A stretch of 15,742 nucleotides of DNA from a virus (lineage: Duplodnaviria > Heunggongvirae > Uroviricota > Caudoviricetes), in IMG/VR virus record IMGVR_UViG_2859783438_000001; one strand, given 5' to 3'. How positions within the stretch are numbered: the first letter of the stretch is position 1; each line of letters starts with the position of its first letter. Of this stretch, positions 1,210 to 12,543 are shown one piece after another. The position numbers were made by a program, and so were the translations under genes. The notes under the pieces are model-generated. The model was not told the origin of the DNA. It was given only the letters and a program-made list of their open reading frames with translations, and ran no database searches.

Positions 1210-1258
1210 TTTCTAGTTGTAAATAAGGGTAACAATTTAACACGATGCAGCTTACCAA

Positions 1259-1636
1259 TTACGTAACATCAAACGCTCTAATTGTTCCCAAATCCTCCAG
1301 ACCACTCAGCTCCTCTTTCATTTCACGCTGACGGCGATAAATCTCATCGTTGCGATCGACCTGCGCCTGCACCATTGCTGCCGCCAGTTCTTCCAGTTCC
1401 GGCATCGACAGTTTCACCTGCTGATTATCGGCATCGCTCCACGCCATATGTGTTTGTGCTGTGACAGATTTTGCCAGCATGACTACCGGGGACAGGCGGC
1501 CCAGTGAGTTGGGGCCAGCATTCCAGATACGACCGTTCCATTCAAACGTGAACGGCTTCGCCTCCTGTTCTGTGCGCCATGCTTCAATTTCCTGACGTCT
1601 GGCCTCTCTGGCCGCTTCCAGCATTTCTGGTGTCAC
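1259..1636 (-). CDS. Tail fiber assembly/chaperone-like protein, C-terminal-domain type; start codon unclear
   Basis: 125-codon ORF in the track, but its first codon is GTG with no Shine-Dalgarno, and the same frame stays open a further 33 codons upstream to a TGA at 1733-1735. Sits 3' of a fiber gene fragment. Product assignment is by position and size only. Confidence 0.45.
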   Translation of the reverse strand: MTPEMLEAAREARRQEIEAWRTEQEAKPFTFEWNGRIWNAGPNSLGRLSPVVMLAKSVTAQTHMAWSDADNQQVKLSMPELEELAAAMVQAQVDRNDEIYRRQREMKEELSGLEDLGTIRAFDVT

Positions 1637-1647
1637 AGTGAATGGGG

Positions 1648-2412
1648 CTATCTCACCCCATTTGCCACTTTGCAGTTCCTGCCAGATTCGCTGACCCGTC
1701 GGTGCGACATCATCAGCACCCAGGCCAGGAAATCACTCTTAGTGTCAAAACGGATAACATCTTCAGGCAGAAAAGCACACCCAAAGCCGAATGCGCCGGG
1801 TATCGCCAGACGGCCTTTTGTCCGGTCGTAAATGTCGCTCTGTGCTTCCATCGTGGCCGCACTTTTCAGCCCCAGATTATCCCGGGACTTCTGTTGTGCC
1901 TTTTCGCCTGCTGCTGCGATTTCAGACAGATGGTTAGCCGTTTTCAGAGTGCCGGTCAGCGCAGCATCAATGTCATTTTTGGCCTGCTCTGCTGCGCGGG
2001 CATAACCTGCGGCTGCCGCCACATCCTGCGCCGTCTGCTGTGCGTTTCCGGCTGCGGCCCCGGCGCTCTGCTGCGCCTGCGCCACCATTTCCTCAAAGCG
2101 TTTGACGACATCCGGTTTCAGGTCGCCCTCATCAGGAGCAATCAGAAAGTCATTCAGCGTGCCGGGCTTTGAGTCGTCGTATACAGCAATGTCGCCAACA
2201 CAGTACTCGTCGCGCCAGTCCCGTTTCAGATACACGCAATATTTTCCGACCTGTGCCTCAAACGAATATTCACCGTTATTTCCGGTCACTACATCAGCCC
2301 TGGTACGCATCACCACTTCTGAGGTGTTTACACGGGATTTCAGAATAATCTGGCATCCGGACATGGGGATGCCTGCGCCATCAGTCAGCGCACCTGATAT
2401 CACTACAGACAT
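1648..2412 (-). pseudogene. Truncated side tail fiber gene with lambdoid Stf-type N-terminal domain (remnant second fiber cassette)
   Basis: N-terminus MSVVISGALTDGAGIP...YDDSKPGTLNDFL follows the pattern of the lambda/Rac Stf N-terminal virion-attachment domain, followed by an Ala/Gln-rich segment. The ORF stops after only 254 aa, far short of normal side tail fibers, and its last ~30 codons overlap the open frame of the next gene in another frame. Confidence 0.55.
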
Positions 2413-2435
2413 AGTTTTTCTCGCGATAAATTAAA

Positions 2436-2981
2436 TCAGGAAGAACCTTCCGGAGAGACGGACCATTCAATGGCGTTATATGAGGATTTATCAGTGATGG
2501 TGCTGAAATCCATCGCCTGCAGCGATTTCGCGTAAATACGGTACGCTTTCAGTTTTTCCCGGTCTTCGTCGCTGATTAGCCCCAGCAGCAGGTCTTCTTC
2601 CCATTCCCCTGTCCGGGCACTGACCTGAGCCAGAAGGGCATCACGCTCATCTTCCGCTTTGAGTCTGTAGTCAAAGACAAATTCATCATTGCGGTAAAAC
2701 CAGTAACCCGGCGCGGTAATGCGGCGGTTGGCGGTAATATCAGGAACTTCAATAACACTGGCGTTACGGGGTTCAATGCCTGTCACATCCTTACCGACCC
2801 ACACCACGCGCCCGTCTCCGGTGTAAACCATTTTTATGGTGTCACTGGCAAAGTTCTTCTGTTCTTCATACCAGTTTTTGCCGTCTTCCGAAAAAAGCCA
2901 GGTGACATCATACTGTTTTGTCAGCTGATATTATTCCGCGGTTTTCGGATTACCTGCCGTAATATTTTTTAAATGCAACAT
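2436..2981 (-). pseudogene. Tail fiber assembly protein (Mu U / Tfa-like) with in-frame premature stop at codon 17
   Basis: ATG at 2981-2979 lies 2 nt after the fiber gene stop. The frame reads MLHLKNITAGNPKTAE, then TAA (2931-2933), then stays open in the same frame (YQLTKQYDVTWLFSEDGKNWYEEQKNF...MVYTGDGRVVWVGKDVTG...) to the stop at 2436. The track's 131-aa ORF is only the portion after an internal Met. Confidence 0.7.
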
Positions 2982-2983
2982 TG

Positions 2984-4024
2984 TTAAATACTCGCTACGT
3001 TATACCAGGTGCCATTAATCAGTTTTTGCAGCGGTCGGTAATACACGCCGTTGACGTTATCCGCTGAGTTACGGCCGGTATCCGATATCGATATCCCTGA
3101 CAGCCCGTGTCCCGAAGGTGAGCGAAATGTCCACGAAACGGTGTTACTGCCGGGGGTGTAATACATTTCATAACCATACCGCACATCCTGCACGCCACCA
3201 TTTCGCTGCTGGTAACGGGCATCAAAGTTTCCGTAGTCTGACGGTGTTACCCGTCCTGTAACGTTTACAGCTTTATTACTCTGGATACTGCCACTCTGAA
3301 AACGCAACACATGCACGCTATTGGCATAAACATCCAGCAGGCCATCACCATTCTGTTTGAATCCGGTGTCATTATCACCAAGAACAATTGAATTCCCCCC
3401 CAGGGCGTTCTGAACGCCGATACCCAGCGCACCATTGACCTGCGAACCACCGCCAACAGACACTTTATGCGACATGGATATTTCACCCGTCCGCAGATTA
3501 ATGGTGAACGGGCGCAGGGGACCAATATCGCCATTTTCCCCCTGACCTTCACTGGTGGGAATAAGGTGCAGGCACTCTTCCGAACGACGAAAAATCAGGC
3601 CAAAAGCTTCGTTGAAAATCCTCAGCGCATTAACACCACGGATTTTCAGCTCTCCGGTCATGGTGTCGCCATCACGCTGAACGGCATTTTTTGCCTTATC
3701 CACCGTGGGTTTTAATCCGAGGTTTTCAACAGCCTCATCCCTGTCTTCCACATCCGAAAGGTTATTTTTTATCAGCAATGCCTCTTCGTTAATTGCACCG
3801 CCCACCAGCAATAATATAGCCTTATATAGCTGGTCGTGTTCTTCTTTATTCAGTTCTATCCCGGCCTTCTCAATGACACCACAGATTTCCTCCTGAATGG
3901 CATTCCACATGGCACTGTTCAGCCAGGTAGCAAGACGTCCTGTGCGAAGATTTCCGTCAGTAAATCCGTTCTTACCCGGACCAAACTTATCTTTTACCGC
4001 AGTCAGCGTATCAATCCTGTGCAT
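2984..4024 (-). CDS. Phage tail fiber protein (C-terminal region resembles P2 gpH / Mu S-type fibers)
   Basis: Contains NALGGNSIVLGDNDTGFKQNGDGLLDVYANS and a C-terminal ...YRPLQKLINGTWYNVASI, both recalled as conserved in P2 H-type fiber C-termini. Three in-frame ATGs at 4036, 4030 and 4024; the one at 4024 follows an AGGA at suitable spacing. Overlaps the 3' end of the upstream gene. Confidence 0.8.
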   Translation of the reverse strand: MHRIDTLTAVKDKFGPGKNGFTDGNLRTGRLATWLNSAMWNAIQEEICGVIEKAGIELNKEEHDQLYKAILLLVGGAINEEALLIKNNLSDVEDRDEAVENLGLKPTVDKAKNAVQRDGDTMTGELKIRGVNALRIFNEAFGLIFRRSEECLHLIPTSEGQGENGDIGPLRPFTINLRTGEISMSHKVSVGGGSQVNGALGIGVQNALGGNSIVLGDNDTGFKQNGDGLLDVYANSVHVLRFQSGSIQSNKAVNVTGRVTPSDYGNFDARYQQRNGGVQDVRYGYEMYYTPGSNTVSWTFRSPSGHGLSGISISDTGRNSADNVNGVYYRPLQKLINGTWYNVASI

Positions 4025-5089: not shown

Positions 5090-5098
5090 TGCGCCCCC
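5090..5098. repeat. Target-site duplication, left copy (TGCGCCCCC) of IS1 copy 1
   Basis: Identical 9-mer directly abuts both ends of the element (5090-5098 and 5548-5556). Confidence 0.9.
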
Positions 5099-5547
5099 GG
5101 TGATGCTGCCAACTTACTGATTTAGTGTATGATGGTGTTTTTGAGGTGCTCCAGTGGCTTCTGTTTCTATCAGCTGTCCCTCCTGTTCAGCTACTGACGG
5201 GGTGGTGCGTAACGGCAAAAGCACTGCCGGACATCAGCGCTATCTCTGCTCTCACTGCCGTAAAACATGGCAACTGCAGTTCACTTACACCGCTTCTCAA
5301 CCCGGTACGCGTGGTGATATGGATGACGGATGGCTGGCCGCTGTATGAATCCCGCCTGAAGGGAAAGCTGCACGTAATCAGCAAGCGATATACGCAGCGA
5401 ATTGAGCGGCATAACCTGAATCTGAGGCAGCACCTGGCACGGCTGGGACGGAAGTCGCTGTCGTTCTCAAAATCGGTGGAGCTGCATGACAAAGTCATCG
5501 GGCATTATCTGAACATAAAACACTATCAATAAGTTGGAGTCATTACC
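5099..5547 (+). mobile_element. IS1 derivative with internal deletion (449 bp versus 768 bp for intact IS1)
   Basis: Starts GGTGATGCTGCCAACTTACTGAT (IRL) and ends ...AAGTTGGAGTCATTACC (IRR). The insA 5' region is joined directly to the 3' part of insB at ...CCGGTACGC/GTGGTGATATGG. Confidence 0.9.
5154..5348 (+). CDS. insA: Truncated InsA (N-terminal zinc-finger region, HTH region deleted) fused to 12 out-of-frame codons
   Basis: [52 protein letters not shown] matches the start of IS1 InsA and then diverges at the deletion junction. Confidence 0.6.
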
Positions 5548-5556
5548 TGCGCCCCC
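5548..5556. repeat. Target-site duplication, right copy (TGCGCCCCC) of IS1 copy 1
   Basis: Identical to 5090-5098. Confidence 0.9.
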
Positions 5557-7059: not shown

Positions 7060-8136
7060 TTACGAAGAGAAAACCCGTTCATCAGAAATCCTCCTCAACA
7101 TTTTTTTCTTCCTGGCGGTAACAGGCTCGGGGAGATAAGCATCTGCCGGGCCAACCCGTAATTCAGTCGTCGTGCCCCGGTCGTCCTGGTTATAGGTAAC
7201 TTCTGCGATCACCAGTTCATCATTATCAAAATTATTCAGCGGGTCGAAAACGATGACAGATAACCCCGGACGCCATAACGCGCCACTGCCCTGCCGCCAG
7301 CCCTGAACCGTATATGTTGTCTCACGGGTAAGCGCAGCCCGTTGGCGCGCTTCAAATTCACAACGGGCCTTACAGGTTGCTGTCGTTGCTGTGCCTGACT
7401 GCTGAATCAACAAAGGGCGATAACGGGTCACGCCACTGTCCTGAATGGTCTGACGTATTGCGGCAATGGTGGCCTCACCAAAATCATCGTCGTTGCCCGG
7501 GCGCTGCCCACTGACCTGATATTCAGAAAACCGCTCTCTGATGCTTCTTTCCGTGTCACAGGAAAGAATATTCTCTCCCAGCACCAGCGCCGTCGCCGCT
7601 TTACCTGTTCCGGGTTTTCCCAGAACCAGTCGCCCGCATTCATCGTCATAAGCCAGCGTCTGAACCTGCCCCAGTAACCGGTTAAGACAATCGGCAACGG
7701 TTTCGCCGTGTTCCGGCTGGGCATCAATCACCGCTGTCTGCGGCACGCCAGCATCAACAACGGTGATGCCAAATGGCGCAGCCAGTTCACTGACTATTCT
7801 GAGCAGGTTTTTTCCGCTCTGCTGGAGTGGCAAAGCAGAGCAGTCAACCAGATCGGCTGTTTTGCTTCGCCCGACAATTCCCATGCTGACGCTGCTGGCG
7901 TCATAACGAAGCGGTAGTGCCTCCACATATCCGGTGAGCACAGGCTCATCCCCGATAAGCACTTCAACCAGCTCACCATTTTTTATCCGGGGTTGATAAT
8001 CCCGGCTTCCGGGCCAGCGGGTGGTAATGGCAACATTAAAATCCCGGGCAATACGGTTAATGCCCGCACTGATACGGACGGATGTCCAGCCGCCCCATTC
8101 GCGACCGGAAACCCGAAGTAAAACGGTATCATTCAT
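7060..8136 (-). CDS. Phage tail/baseplate protein (Mu gp44 P-like, P2 gpD-like)
   Basis: 358-aa ORF whose ATG overlaps the stop of the upstream gene by 4 nt. Order and size are conserved with Mu. Confidence 0.8.
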   Translation of the reverse strand: MNDTVLLRVSGREWGGWTSVRISAGINRIARDFNVAITTRWPGSRDYQPRIKNGELVEVLIGDEPVLTGYVEALPLRYDASSVSMGIVGRSKTADLVDCSALPLQQSGKNLLRIVSELAAPFGITVVDAGVPQTAVIDAQPEHGETVADCLNRLLGQVQTLAYDDECGRLVLGKPGTGKAATALVLGENILSCDTERSIRERFSEYQVSGQRPGNDDDFGEATIAAIRQTIQDSGVTRYRPLLIQQSGTATTATCKARCEFEARQRAALTRETTYTVQGWRQGSGALWRPGLSVIVFDPLNNFDNDELVIAEVTYNQDDRGTTTELRVGPADAYLPEPVTARKKKMLRRISDERVFSS

Positions 8137-9524
8137 CTGACGGGTACCCTTAATGCCCTGACCGGAACAAAGCCCGGATGAGAGATGGCATTTCGATCCA
8201 GGATATCAGTTTCACGGGACGCATCGTCGTACCATGACGCAGCCAGAACAAGCGCAGGCAGAACTTCCGCTGGCGTTCGCTCTGCGGTTTCCTCCGTCTG
8301 AACCAGACGCGCCTGAATATCCCGGTTCAGTTCTGTACGTAATGACGTCAGCTGAAAAAACAGCCTGTCATCCGCCGTACGCCTGAGCTCCTGTTCAATC
8401 GCCGCGTTCAGCGATTCGCGTATGATGGTGAGATTTTCCCGCGTGGGTGGTTGCGCTCTCTCATCCTGTCCTGTGCTGGCTGCCACGCTGTCAAGTGCCG
8501 GATGAGAAACGTGAATAATATCGGACTGACGTTCAGTGGAACCACCAACAGCCACAACCGCCTGCTGATTTTTCACCAGGCTTCCGGGTTGTGGCAGTGA
8601 AGTGACCGCCCTTGTGGCTTCGCTGATTGCCGTCGTCCGGATGACAGCAGCCACAAGGTTTGTCTGCTGTTTTTGCCTGATAACCGATGCGGAATCTGTG
8701 GGCCACACCGCACGCGGTGCCAGTCCTGGGTCCAGCGTAATGCCGGACATTGTCGTTATGGACTGCACCAGATCCTGTGTGTTATCCACCAGCCGGGTTC
8801 CGGCCCGCCAGGTATCCTGCAACGTATGCACAAAATCACTGGCAACCGACGGCGGCATCAGAATGACGGATAAATCGCCCTGCAGTAGTCTCGCTCCGGC
8901 AGAAACAGCCGAATTAACCATTTTGAAAGCTGTCTGAACGGTTCCCAGCATATCGGTCGTCCGGGCAATAACATCGTTCTGAATAAAGTCCGGTATTCCC
9001 GCGAGATCAAAATCGCCGAACATGTCTTCAATCAACTCATCCAGGAATACGGACGACTCCTCCAGTTTTCTGGCGGTTGCAGCTCCGGCGACCGGAAATG
9101 ACAGTTCCCCGCTCTCAACAAACTGAAATGAAACCCGGCACATACGGCCTTCAGTGCCGGAGTGAGAAACGGTCACCTGCCCGTCAATACAGCCCTGCAT
9201 TTCACCGAACTGCGGATGGATCAGCGTCCCCGGCCCGGCGGTTTCAATCGCTGTAATCAGCCTGTCGCGCTGCTCTGCGTAATCATCACCAACGAGATAC
9301 GCATTAATCGTCAGCCGTCGCGTGGCACGCCCGAGATCTTCCGTGTACGGTTTGTCACGGTTTGGGTATTCATGGACCTGAACGCGGCGTCCGAACGAAC
9401 CCTCGTCGCTCTCCACCGAAAACGGAACGCCACGAAATGAAGCGTCGTAAAGATTATCGCGCCAATTGATACCTGAAGATGCAGAAAAGAGTGAAGAAAG
9501 AGAAGGTAAAGAAGGTAAGTCCAT
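8133..9524 (-). CDS. Phage DNA circulation protein (Mu gp43 N-like)
   Basis: 463-aa ORF with ATG at 9524 preceded by GGAGA at 5-nt spacing. Lies between the tape measure and the baseplate genes as in Mu. Confidence 0.8.
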   Translation of the reverse strand: MDLPSLPSLSSLFSASSGINWRDNLYDASFRGVPFSVESDEGSFGRRVQVHEYPNRDKPYTEDLGRATRRLTINAYLVGDDYAEQRDRLITAIETAGPGTLIHPQFGEMQGCIDGQVTVSHSGTEGRMCRVSFQFVESGELSFPVAGAATARKLEESSVFLDELIEDMFGDFDLAGIPDFIQNDVIARTTDMLGTVQTAFKMVNSAVSAGARLLQGDLSVILMPPSVASDFVHTLQDTWRAGTRLVDNTQDLVQSITTMSGITLDPGLAPRAVWPTDSASVIRQKQQTNLVAAVIRTTAISEATRAVTSLPQPGSLVKNQQAVVAVGGSTERQSDIIHVSHPALDSVAASTGQDERAQPPTRENLTIIRESLNAAIEQELRRTADDRLFFQLTSLRTELNRDIQARLVQTEETAERTPAEVLPALVLAASWYDDASRETDILDRNAISHPGFVPVRALRVPVR

Positions 9525-9538
9525 ACTGTCTCCACTAT

Positions 9539-9562
9539 AAAAAAACCGCCAATTTCTGGCGG
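9539..9562 (-). terminator. Rho-independent terminator downstream of the lipoprotein cargo gene
   Basis: On the minus strand: stem CCGCCAG, loop AAATT, stem TGGCGG followed by T7 (plus 9546-9562, A7 at 9539-9545). It lies 9 nt after the cargo gene stop and immediately before the RBS of the N-like gene. Confidence 0.6.
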
Positions 9563-9943
9563 CTTATATATTAATCATCATTAATATCTTTCATATTCAA
9601 TTTGCAATTTTCGTAGGTCACTCCCGACTCGCCATTAACATTAACTCCAGCTCTGATATTCCCGTTTTCTTTTACATCTACAAAAAACTGGCCTCTTGGC
9701 ATCTTGAACGCAAATGTAAAACCAACAGTATCTGAATCAAAATCATCATCTTTATATATTGGGATCAAAAATGTCATCGTCGCTGGTGATGCATTGTTTG
9801 CAAAATCAAATACACCTATACTTTTGCCGAATTCATAAGAAGCTTTTCTCAATATAATCGCACCGCTGGCAGAAGGGGATGGGCACGATATCCTCAGTTG
9901 TCTGAATCCATCTGTATCCAAGTCAACGTCATTATCTGCAGAT

Positions 9944-9952
9944 GTTTTAACG
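9944..9952. repeat. Target-site duplication (GTTTTAACG) of IS1 copy 2
   Basis: Identical 9-mer at 9944-9952 and 10417-10425, directly abutting the element ends. Confidence 0.9.
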
Positions 9953-10416
9953 GGTAATGACTCCAACTTATTGATAGTGTTTTATGTTCAGATAATGCCC
10001 GATGACTTTGTCATGCAGCTCCACCGATTTTGAGAACGACAGCGACTTCCGTCCCAGCCGTGCCAGGTGCTGCCTCAGATTCAGGTTATGCCGCTCAATT
10101 CGCTGCGTATATCGCTTGCTGATTACGTGCAGCTTTCCCTTCAGGCGGGATTCATACAGCGGCCAGCCATCCGTCATCCATATCACCACGTCAAAGGGTG
10201 ACAGCCGTACCGGGTTGAGAAGCGGTGTAAGTGAACTGCAGTTGCCATGTTTTACGGCAGTGAGAGCAGAGATAGCGCTGATGTCCGGCAGTGCTTTTGC
10301 CGTTACGCACCACCCCGTCAGTAGCTGAACAGGAGGGACAGCTGATAGAAACAGAAGCCACTGGAGCACCTCAAAAACACCATCATACACTAAATCAGTA
10401 AGTTGGCAGCATCACC
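9953..10416 (-). mobile_element. IS1 derivative with internal deletion (464 bp), inverted relative to copy 1
   Basis: Ends GGTAATGACTCCAACTTATTGAT (9953...) and ...AGTAAGTTGGCAGCATCACC (10416). Same deletion junction as copy 1 but keeps 15 extra bp (GCTGTCACCCTTTGA). Confidence 0.9.
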
Positions 10417-10425
10417 GTTTTAACG
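10417..10425. repeat. Target-site duplication (GTTTTAACG) of IS1 copy 2, second copy
   Basis: Identical to 9944-9952. Confidence 0.9.
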
Positions 10426-10593
10426 TTACTAATAAATCGTGAAACAATCTCCTCATTTGTTAGTATTTTCGCCTGAGCACAGCAAGAGGTTAATATTGCA
10501 ACCGTCATTAAAAATGGCTTTATCACAAAACAAACTCCATTGTTAGCATGTTACGCGATAATTTTGCCTCATCTTTCACCACAAAAAAAGAAC

Positions 10594-12543
10594 TCACCTT
10601 TTAAATGGAGAATACCCAACATCATGGGTGATTTTCATAAAGGGATCGCCTGTTTTCGGCAAATCGATAACGCGCATTCCAGGCGGCGCGTTGTCAAACG
10701 TCACCTTAAGTTCGCTGCGGGTTGCCGGTGAAGATGCAAGGCTTAACAGCTGATTCCTTTCCAGTGATACATTCGGGGTGTAGCGTTTATCGGGAGATAA
10801 ATACCCATCACCACGTGGCATCTGCCATCCGGTCATGTCATAGACAAAATCATGGAACTGTTTGCCCCACTCGTCGAACTTATCATTCAGACCAAATCCA
10901 CTGTTCAGTGCATCAGCCACAAAATTTTTAACAAGCCAGGGATGTGCTTTTTCAAACTCCTGCGCCATCATGCCCAGTTCAAGCAATCCACCAATCAGAC
11001 TGATCTTTCCGAGGCCCTTTAATTTCAGCCCTGTTTTTCCTGCCGCCGTTGTCCATTGATTCTGGGCGACTGTTGCCGCACGAATACTTGCCACCGCCTT
11101 CACACCAATATACAGGGCAGAAACCGTTGCTATTGTTTTTACTGCCTGTTCCCATCCCCCCATTGCTCTGACAACCTGATCAACCTCCTGCCAGACTTTT
11201 TTCACAACCGGACCGACCGTTTCCCAGTTATCAATTATGAGATATGCACCACCGACGAGAAGCGCAATTAATCCCTTTGCCGGCGTCATATTCATCACGC
11301 TACCCATGATTTTTGTTATGCGTGTCAATGTGCCAATCGCCACGCCCATCGTCAGTAATGCCGCACCAGTTTTCGCGATGGTTTTTACGACCTCAGGATT
11401 TTCTCTGACAAACGTGCGCACTTCTTCCAGAAAAGGCTTCATCTCTTTTATGCCTTCATTGAGTGAAGGCAGGAAGGTTTCCCCCAGCGTGGAAGAAATC
11501 GCATTGATCTGGTTCTGCAGCAGCAACAACTGATTTTCTGTCGTCGCGGCACGGGCGGCATATTCTTTCTGCATTGAGCCGCCATACTGCTGCGCATCCG
11601 CCACACGATTAAAGTTGGTTCGCAACAAATCCAGATTCGTGAGCAGCGGCGCAATGGCCCCCAGGGATTCCTTCCCGAACAGCGCTTTCAGCACAGCAGC
11701 CTGTTTTTCTTTCGGCACTTTTGCCAGAGAATCCAGTACGTGCAGCATGGCCCCGCGGGCGTCTTTCTGCATATCCGCCGCCAGTTTTTTCGGGCTAATG
11801 CGCAACGAGCGGAGCACTTTTTTCTGCGATTTGGTGGCAGAATCCCTCGCTGTCAGCGACAACATAAAATTCTTTATCCCCGTCGCAGCAATTTCTGACT
11901 CCACCCCCATTCCGGCAATGGTTGCCCCCATTGCGGCAATCTCTCCGGAGGCCACACCCGCAACACTGCCTAAAGGGCCAATACGGGTCACAACATCAGA
12001 AATCTTTTTCGCACTTGCAGGACCGGTATTACCAAGATAGTTAATCTTATCCGCAAGCCCTGCCACCTCTCCCTGTGTCAGTTTAAAGGCAGTGCGCCAC
12101 TGCGCCATCATCTGACCGGATTCTTCTGCCGTGGTGTCAAAGGCCACGCCCATCTTCACGGCATCGTCAGTAAACTGCATCAGCTCGTCACGGGCGATAC
12201 CAGCCTGACCACCCGCCGCCACAATTTCGGCGATACCTTCCGCCGACATGGGCAGTTCTGTTGACAGGTCGCGCACCTGCTCCGTCATTGCCTTAAACGC
12301 TTCCGGCGTATCCAGACCATCCACCACTTTCCGGACATCCGCCATTTTTGATTCAAGGGCAATGGCAGATTTGACCGGGAGCGCCAGCGCCCCCAGTACT
12401 GCGGTTCCGGCACCCGCTGCGCCCAGTAACAGGCTGGCAAACTCCTTTTTAAAACCTTTCAGCTGGCGCTGCATTCCCTTCAGCGGTGCCGATACCTTAT
12501 CCACGGCAGTGATGATCGCCTTCAGCTGAAAACTGTCAGCCAT
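10594..12543 (-). CDS. Phage tail tape measure protein
   Basis: 649-aa ORF with ATG at 12543 preceded by GAGGAG. Ala/Gly-rich with hydrophobic segments, and placed after the tail chaperone gene. Confidence 0.88.
   Translation of the reverse strand: MADSFQLKAIITAVDKVSAPLKGMQRQLKGFKKEFASLLLGAAGAGTAVLGALALPVKSAIALESKMADVRKVVDGLDTPEAFKAMTEQVRDLSTELPMSAEGIAEIVAAGGQAGIARDELMQFTDDAVKMGVAFDTTAEESGQMMAQWRTAFKLTQGEVAGLADKINYLGNTGPASAKKISDVVTRIGPLGSVAGVASGEIAAMGATIAGMGVESEIAATGIKNFMLSLTARDSATKSQKKVLRSLRISPKKLAADMQKDARGAMLHVLDSLAKVPKEKQAAVLKALFGKESLGAIAPLLTNLDLLRTNFNRVADAQQYGGSMQKEYAARAATTENQLLLLQNQINAISSTLGETFLPSLNEGIKEMKPFLEEVRTFVRENPEVVKTIAKTGAALLTMGVAIGTLTRITKIMGSVMNMTPAKGLIALLVGGAYLIIDNWETVGPVVKKVWQEVDQVVRAMGGWEQAVKTIATVSALYIGVKAVASIRAATVAQNQWTTAAGKTGLKLKGLGKISLIGGLLELGMMAQEFEKAHPWLVKNFVADALNSGFGLNDKFDEWGKQFHDFVYDMTGWQMPRGDGYLSPDKRYTPNVSLERNQLLSLASSPATRSELKVTFDNAPPGMRVIDLPKTGDPFMKITHDVGYSPFKR

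Follow-up and report, generated by a model that had tools for sequence, protein, structure and literature searches.

The interrupted gene and its reconstruction

The window analyzed here, i.e. the whole 15,742-nucleotide stretch of the IMG/VR virus record IMGVR_UViG_2859783438_000001 (Caudoviricetes), belongs to a phiP27-type prophage, an element with lambdoid regulation, an HK97-like head and a Mu-like contractile tail. Our analysis considered a small cargo gene within its tail operon that has been split by a derivative of the insertion sequence IS1. With a probability of about 0.5, we read this region as a moron, that is, a self-contained gene-plus-terminator cassette between the tape-measure gene and a Mu N-like gene. 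The cargo gene is an uncharacterized member of a well-known kind of element, and its broken copy in the window reflects ordinary genome decay.

All features of the locus are read on the minus strand. Upstream lies the tail tape-measure gene (10594..12543; Pfam PhageMin_Tail, 1.4e-44), followed by an AT-rich leader of 67 nt (10527..10593) that holds the ribosome-binding site (RBS) of the cargo gene, GGAG at 10538-10535, 8 nt before the GTG start codon at 10526. The 5' fragment of the gene (10417..10526) comprises codons 1-36 plus 2 nt and includes the left copy of a 9-bp target-site duplication, CGTTAAAAC, a perfect direct repeat found at 10425-10417 (left) and 9952-9944 (right). Between the two copies lies the internally deleted IS1 of 464 bp (9953..10416), recognized by alignment to IS1A and retaining both terminal inverted repeats. 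The 3' fragment (9571..9943) comprises codons 37-160 and the stop codon TAA at 9573-9571. An intrinsic terminator (9539..9565; stem GCCGCCA/TGGCGGT, then T7) stands directly before the RBS (GGAG, 9533-9530) of the downstream gene, which starts with ATG at 9524 and encodes a Mu N-like DNA-circularization/tail protein (8133..9524; Pfam DNA_circ_N, 3e-36). The hairpin at 9565-9539 has a predicted free energy of -14 kcal/mol, with z values of -4.1 to -4.5. The positions that a first-pass annotation had assigned from the letters alone to the start codon, RBS, stop codon, hairpin with T7 and N-like start all proved correct.

That annotation had also proposed that a single frame would appear once the IS1 derivative and one copy of the duplication were taken out. 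Indeed, removing both in silico yields 483 nt, encoding 160 amino acids plus a stop codon. The rebuilt protein begins with MIKPFLMTVAILTSCC (a longer stretch of the start reads MIKPFLMTVAILTSCCAQAK), with a cysteine at position 15.

Intact homologues and their distribution

For genome searches, the query was the reconstructed 683-nt stretch comprising the open reading frame (ORF) and its flanks. The search for an intact copy at this position, which had been proposed, was successful: E. coli FDAARGOS_944 matches the query at 100% identity and has an intact annotated gene there (WP_000594909.1), and 10 further complete E. coli genomes match it at 97-99%, uninterrupted. In all 11 of these genomes, the gene lies between genes annotated as "phage tail tape measure protein" and "DNA circularization protein", and in all seven E. 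coli genomes in which the annotation was examined, its product is listed as an intact hypothetical protein. On this sequence evidence, the rebuilt ORF is a real gene, in its normal place.

More distant members occupy the same slot. A Yersinia enterocolitica prophage carries a 74%-identical copy there, with no tape-measure gene called in the 1.5-kb gap upstream of the homologue on that contig (JBRUQM010000038.1). The phage vB_EcoM-720R4 (hereafter 720R4), deposited as a complete phage genome, carries a copy that is ~50% identical, and a copy of the 720R4 clade was found in 101 further E. coli genomes. Thus, 112 of 5,426 complete E. coli genomes (~2%) have a family member in the slot, 11 from the clade of the window and 101 from that of 720R4. 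Members at 34-38% identity fill the slot in other viral contigs. At 30% identity, a member on a metagenomic phage contig (L034, 2387-2974) lies downstream of the tape-measure gene behind a gene for a HIRAN-domain protein, and therefore the slot may be a hot spot for cargo of more than one gene.

The family, which is also present in Shigella, Salmonella and Yersinia, is small, with about ten clusters at 50% identity among 1.8 billion representatives. Homologues were detected down to 24-30% identity, and the cysteines and motifs are conserved among them. Over the mature part of the protein, dN/dS is 0.11 against the Yersinia copy (74% identity) and 0.15 against that of 720R4 (~50%). The rebuilt protein matches the PHROG 5586 profile over its full length (E 9.7e-89, residues 1-160 on profile positions 1-161). 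This family is catalogued as "unknown function", so that membership carries no functional information. PHROG 5586 was the sole family match, with none in Pfam, NCBIfam or PADLOC, and Pfam yielded nothing usable for 12 family members even at E values up to 10. No paper that names the gene family came up when the literature was searched with accession numbers and the PHROG id. Three large proteins from the exhaustive profile search (P0017, P0018 and P0020) were rejected as Ser/Thr-rich repeat artefacts rather than relatives.

Export signal

The 5' fragment encodes a signal peptide, MIKPFLMTVAILTSCCAQA followed by K, that contains both a lipobox, LTSC (Cys15), and a signal-peptidase I site, AQA/K (the slash marks the cut). 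A signal peptide stands at the start of every full-length family member, and we consider the protein, as predicted from these sequences, to be certainly exported. The intact protein would be exported by Sec and disulfide-bonded in the periplasm.

The first-pass annotation had called the product a putative lipoprotein. The part of this claim that concerns export stands, and the lipobox agrees fully with PROSITE PS51257, which places the lipobox cysteine at position 15-35 and asks for K or R among the first seven residues: the box reads FLMTVAILTSC, with Cys15, Lys3 and an uncharged stretch before it. Moreover, E. coli and Yersinia still share L[TI]SCC despite saturation at synonymous sites (dS 1.3) and divergence in the remainder of the signal peptide. 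Lipidation at Cys15, as judged from the sequence, has in our view an even chance. With the same even odds, the protein of this clade may, besides being exported, receive a lipid at Cys15 and go to the outer membrane, a destination indicated by the residue at +2, which is not Asp.

The part of the claim that concerns lipidation is left undecided, as the lipobox is limited to one clade and the AQA/K site has been kept. With a likelihood that we place just short of even, the product is instead a soluble periplasmic protein that signal peptidase I cuts after AQA19, the LTSC match being incidental. Such a cut would remove Cys15 and Cys16, so that the mature protein would have exactly the two cysteines seen in the other family members, while processing by signal peptidase II would keep Cys16 as an odd cysteine with no partner. 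The window protein aligns, with its AQA/K, to the plain ...A/K sites that all other clades show in place of a lipobox: the copies of 720R4, L014, L017, P0011, P0012, P0013, P0022 and P0024 have no validly placed lipobox, and outside the lipobox clade the signal peptides end, for example, in SFA/K, LALA/K, VFA/K, ALA/K and AMA/K. At position -3, E. coli alleles contain only A, T or V, all of which signal peptidase I allows. What the soluble form does not account for is the complete agreement with PS51257 and the retention of L[TI]SCC at a dS of 1.3. There is also precedent for both forms in a single family, in which MliC is a lipoprotein and PliC is soluble.

It should be mentioned that the Yersinia copy (L006, 7976-8010, on contig JBRUQM010000038.1) has an apparent 1-nt frameshift in the signal peptide, which reads MKKPIYLCL and a stop in one frame and MMLISCC... 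in the next; with one base added, it reads MKKPIYLCFMMLISCC, with a lipobox.

Predicted fold and conserved features

The 3' fragment encodes the end of an N-terminal helix, a CPSPSASG loop, an 8-stranded barrel and the two cysteines Cys57 and Cys150, a pair common to the family. The family motifs are CPxPSASG, KASYEF and MPxGQFFV. Structure prediction, which had been suggested as a check, was performed with AlphaFold2. When 12 diverse members were aligned, the model reached a pLDDT of 84.9 and a pTM of 0.77 and comprised a helix (residues 24-41), eight strands and a short C-terminal helix; with a shallow alignment of five sequences, the pLDDT was 40. No specific structural match emerged: Foldseek searches against PDB and BFVD gave nothing below E 1e-3, and PDB sequences, when searched with a profile, yielded nothing above noise (E >= 0.1). 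According to the model, the exported product is a small, probably disulfide-bonded beta-barrel.

Among nine close E. coli and Shigella alleles (L008-L013, L031 and L032, compared with the window), the helix codons 20-41 contain 9 nonsynonymous and 0 synonymous polymorphic sites, versus 9 and 9 elsewhere. This contrast has a Fisher p of 0.012, in a test that rests on 27 sites and on a region that was chosen after the model had been seen. Judged from these alleles, the helix may be under diversifying selection as a binding surface.

A putative moron between the tape-measure and N-like genes

Morons, for which we followed the Hendrix/Juhala definition, are the main way in which temperate phages alter their hosts, and most are without known function. 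Here, the tail module of phiP27 serves as the reference for the empty site, as it is almost identical to that of the window, with a flank identity of 91-97%. The tape-measure and N genes of phiP27 are just 15 nt apart. Homology with phiP27 breaks ~5 codons before the tape-measure stop codon and picks up again at the ATG of the N gene; the differing last ~5 codons of the tape-measure gene thus mark the left edge of the inserted cassette. An empty junction of the phiP27 type occurs in about 50 complete E. coli genomes. The first-pass annotation had stated that tail modules of this type normally lack the segment. This holds for those genomes, while the 112 genomes that carry a family member at the junction limit the generality of the statement.

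Base composition also sets the cassette apart. In 300-nt windows outside the IS1 copy, the GC content of the segment is 36-45%, compared with mostly 47-59% in the neighboring phage genes, and across five lineages the cargo gene has 34-38% GC while its flanks have 44-55%. The earlier description is upheld in that the segment holds a genuine cargo gene, rich in AT, that has an RBS and a terminator of its own, sits between genes that adjoin in phiP27 and has been split by an IS1 derivative.

In each of the seven lineages examined, two of which are phage-plasmid contexts, the stop codon is immediately followed by an intrinsic terminator (z values of -3.0 to -5.8). The stems differ: GCCGCC/GGCGG in the window and E. 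coli, CCGCG/CGCGG in 720R4, CCCGCC/GGCGGG in L014, GCCCGC/GCGGGT in L017, GGAGC/GCTCC in phage-plasmid L004 and GGGGC/GCCCC in phage-plasmid L005. The Yersinia copy (L006) has CCGCC/GGCGG, a stem like that of the window with another loop. Of the homologues whose location could be established, the two most distant come from the maintenance regions of phage-plasmids, where their neighbors are genes for IncFII RepA, ParA, a CI-like repressor and toxin-antitoxin pairs, and therefore the cassette moves between contexts.

A terminator in the middle of a late operon raised the concern, voiced in the first-pass annotation, that the baseplate genes would need read-through to be expressed. The hairpin does stand directly before the RBS of the N-like gene. 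However, in phiP27 and 720R4, the two relatives with full annotation, a gene for a Q-type antiterminator precedes a single late operon, and 720R4 carries the same gene-plus-terminator pair before its N gene. In lambdoid phages, Q-modified polymerase ignores intrinsic terminators. The hairpin is therefore no block to baseplate gene expression in lytic growth, during which the Q-modified polymerase would read through it. As the terminator acts only on polymerase that has not been antiterminated and has nonetheless been kept in every lineage, we infer Q-independent, lysogenic transcription. In a lysogen, the cargo gene would thus be transcribed from a nearby, putative Q-independent promoter, and the terminator would halt this lysogenic transcript before the baseplate genes.

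Possible function

If the region is a moron, as we propose, its product could tentatively be regarded as a periplasmic binding protein that shields the envelope of the lysogen from incoming phage, i.e. a superinfection-exclusion protein. It would act by obstructing either the delivery of the phage genome or a receptor on its periplasmic face, and contact would be made through the N-terminal helix, which varies between alleles. This role is suggested by the moron architecture, by the distant homologues in maintenance regions, by the envelope location, by the helix polymorphism among close alleles and by a precedent in phage HK97, where gp15, a moron adjoining the tape-measure gene, acts as a superinfection-exclusion protein that blocks genome entry (PMC3594210). 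Like the cargo gene, HK97 gp15 is an extra transcription unit in the tail operon, directly beside the tape-measure gene, with a deviant base composition and a small envelope protein as its product. The cargo product, by contrast, is an exported beta-barrel with a mature length of ~140 amino acids whose gene follows the tape-measure gene, whereas gp15, a relative of YebO, is a small protein of the inner membrane encoded upstream of that gene. We found no sequence relationship between the two. The gp15 moron was reportedly described by Juhala and colleagues in 2000 and by Cumby and colleagues in 2012. Other cargo genes in or near the lambdoid late region, lambda bor and lom, likewise encode envelope proteins (Bor being a lipoprotein) and are expressed from the prophage with their own transcription signals. 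They belong, however, to unrelated protein families, and there is no evidence here for the serum-resistance and adhesion phenotypes that they confer.

A wider version of this idea, which we regard as unlikely, is that the members of PHROG 5586 form a new class of periplasmic beta-barrels that phages encode for exclusion or immunity, tied to the tape-measure/baseplate junction of phiP27-type myophages and also found on phage-plasmids. Such proteins would bind the incoming tape-measure protein, spike or cell-wall hydrolase in the periplasm and so stop genome delivery. The fast-evolving N-terminal helix would set specificity, and one clade would have turned the soluble protein into an outer-membrane lipoprotein.

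When weighing the moron and its proposed protective role, several results should be counted on the other side. Consensus promoter scans upstream of the gene in five lineages revealed no site with 9/12 matches, only weak candidates whose positions are not conserved. In one lineage, the gap to the tape-measure stop codon is only 16 nt, with a good RBS, and transcription of the late operon could be the main or sole source of expression. Most family members lack the lipobox, which occurs only in the Escherichia/Shigella/Yersinia clade. Neither sequence nor fold comparison tied the protein specifically to a known exclusion, immunity or inhibitor protein, and PADLOC returned nothing. The modelled fold is a generic barrel, which also fits ligand-binding roles and does not fix function, and the small number of sites behind the helix polymorphism has been mentioned above.

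The absence of a convincing promoter, together with the 16-nt gap, would also fit a lytic-cycle accessory gene that is expressed only within the Q-dependent late operon and has no part in lysogenic conversion, as would the stability of the slot across members at 30-50% identity. The role of such a gene might be to keep progeny from wasting themselves on cell debris, and the hairpin would then be a stabilizer of the mRNA 3' end or an attenuator rather than the end of a lysogenic transcript. We consider each of these proposals unlikely. Stand-alone homologues with their own terminators sit in phage-plasmid maintenance regions, far from late genes; the cassette is present or absent on otherwise near-identical tail modules; and a terminator would be without effect on antiterminated polymerase.

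Still less probable is a periplasmic inhibitor of a peptidoglycan hydrolase, like MliC, PliC and PhiA or a type VI immunity protein, guarding the lysogen from host lysozyme, from the amidase or muramidase toxins of competitors or from the tail-associated lysins of phages. The resemblance lies in the compartment and in the small size of the predicted barrel: MliC/PliC (Pfam PF09864) and PhiA are small periplasmic 8-stranded beta-barrels with a disulfide, they share the duality of lipoprotein and soluble forms, and in the cargo protein a conserved cysteine lies near the first and another near the last strand. The CPxPSASG loop holds the pentapeptide SASGA, which also occurs in the inhibitory loop of E. 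coli MliC, ISASGARY, and enteric hosts do meet lysozyme. Yet the Pfam MliC model matches none of 12 members, even at E values up to 10, and hhalign profile-profile alignment against MliC/PliC gives a probability of 0.1%, on which basis membership in that family was rejected. The cargo protein differs by its extra N-terminal helix, the loop lies elsewhere in the chain, and PSASG is followed by hydrophobic strand residues, the Tyr of SxSGAxY being absent from every member of the family. In addition, many unrelated barrels (avidins, lipocalins and designed barrels) score as well or better.

The first-pass annotation had drawn an analogy to Cor (phi80, N15) and Llp (T5), under which the product would be a lipoprotein of the outer membrane that hides the receptor used by its own phage, acting from the periplasm. 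Cor, which HK022 also encodes, and Llp are phage-encoded, exported, small lipobox-bearing proteins that protect the host by acting on its envelope, and the cargo protein shares with them the lipobox pattern and a location as cargo in a prophage tail region; the allelic variation of its helix would be compatible with a binding interface. The analogy nevertheless drew no support from sequence or fold, as scans of Pfam, PHROGs, NCBIfam and PADLOC revealed no relationship to Cor or Llp and returned only PHROG 5586. Cor and Llp are about half the size of the mature cargo protein, most members of the cargo family have no lipid anchor and would be soluble (the lipobox occurring in only one clade), and no receptor is known for these phages. 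We thus judge this explanation very unlikely.

Finally, the idea that no gene exists and that the rebuilt frame is open merely by chance in AT-rich sequence, which the first-pass annotation had itself named among the findings that would overturn its proposal and which has nothing beyond low GC content to recommend it, is already refuted by the results above, namely the uninterrupted sequence at the same site in 11 E. coli genomes, the homologues that keep cysteines and motifs down to 24-30% identity, the strong coding constraint (dN/dS 0.11-0.15), the PHROG 5586 match (E 1e-88) and the confidently predicted fold. The other two findings that it had named did not arise either: intact homologues exist, and a lipobox pattern is present.

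Returning to superinfection exclusion, the family now has a confident predicted fold, an export signal, a fixed slot and a variable helix, which makes it directly testable for exclusion or envelope protection.

IS1 insertion and prophage decay

In the window, the cargo gene is a pseudogene, as the IS1 derivative inserted after codon 36 and parted the signal peptide from the barrel. The 5' piece would yield a 43-residue peptide, consisting of the signal peptide, 18 more residues of the protein and 6 residues encoded by the insertion sequence, while the barrel-encoding 3' piece is left without an export signal. The main value of this copy is as an example of prophage decay driven by insertion sequences in a Shigella-type genome and as a pointer to intact alleles, which are worth a phage-exclusion test.

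Both ends of the derivative at 10416..9953 are identical to IS1A of K-12. Some 304 bp (IS1A nt ~212-515) are gone and InsA is truncated; the element therefore encodes no transposase and is non-autonomous. A 140-residue ORF in the remnant (9968..10390) might be taken for an InsA-InsB fusion, but its 5' part, read by eye, lies in a frame other than that of insA, which led us to reject this reading.

Similar damage is seen elsewhere. A "partial" protein of S. sonnei (P0036, 37 residues) terminates exactly at the insertion point, which makes S. sonnei or a close relative the probable source of the window. In Shigella assemblies the gene is repeatedly present as fragments. In E. coli PEC122 (L033, NZ_CM168021.1, 4438216-4440142), a full-length IS1B lies near the 5' end of a 720R4-type allele in the same tape-measure/N slot, an insertion independent of that in the window. 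IS1 prefers AT-rich targets, which would be in keeping with the repeated hits on a cassette of 34-38% GC.

The prophage is defective in further ways. A second internally deleted IS1 of 449 bp (5099-5547, plus strand) splits the baseplate J-like gene and is flanked by its own 9-bp duplication, TGCGCCCCC, at 5090-5098 and 5548-5556. In both copies, the deletion has the same left endpoint and position 127 of IS1A is changed from C to T, and the copy at 5099-5547 lacks 15 further bp, which suggests a later slip deletion of 15 bp. That neither encodes a transposase, yet each has its own duplication, suggests a non-autonomous mini-IS1 mobilized in trans. The copies (5098-5547 and 9953-10417) are inverted relative to each other, with arms of 212 and 238 nt that are 100% identical. 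Recombination could invert the 4.4 kb between them, on which the gp46-, V-, P- and N-like genes lie, or this segment could act as a composite element.

The prophage of E. coli FDAARGOS_944 (L001; 3528-6328 and 18496-18683), which carries the identical intact allele and is the closest intact relative, has an ISEc60 in its tail-sheath gene and a frameshifted ipaHe effector gene beside the tail-fibre genes. Compared with it, the window (1258-3291) is without ~690 bp at 1717/1718, and the tail-fibre region differs around 3256-3291. At the left end of the window, smpB (1-483; Pfam SmpB, 1.5e-57) and the transfer-messenger RNA (tmRNA) gene ssrA (698-1060; tag ANDENYALAA) were found, and the tail-fibre end of the prophage therefore abuts the classical ssrA integration site.

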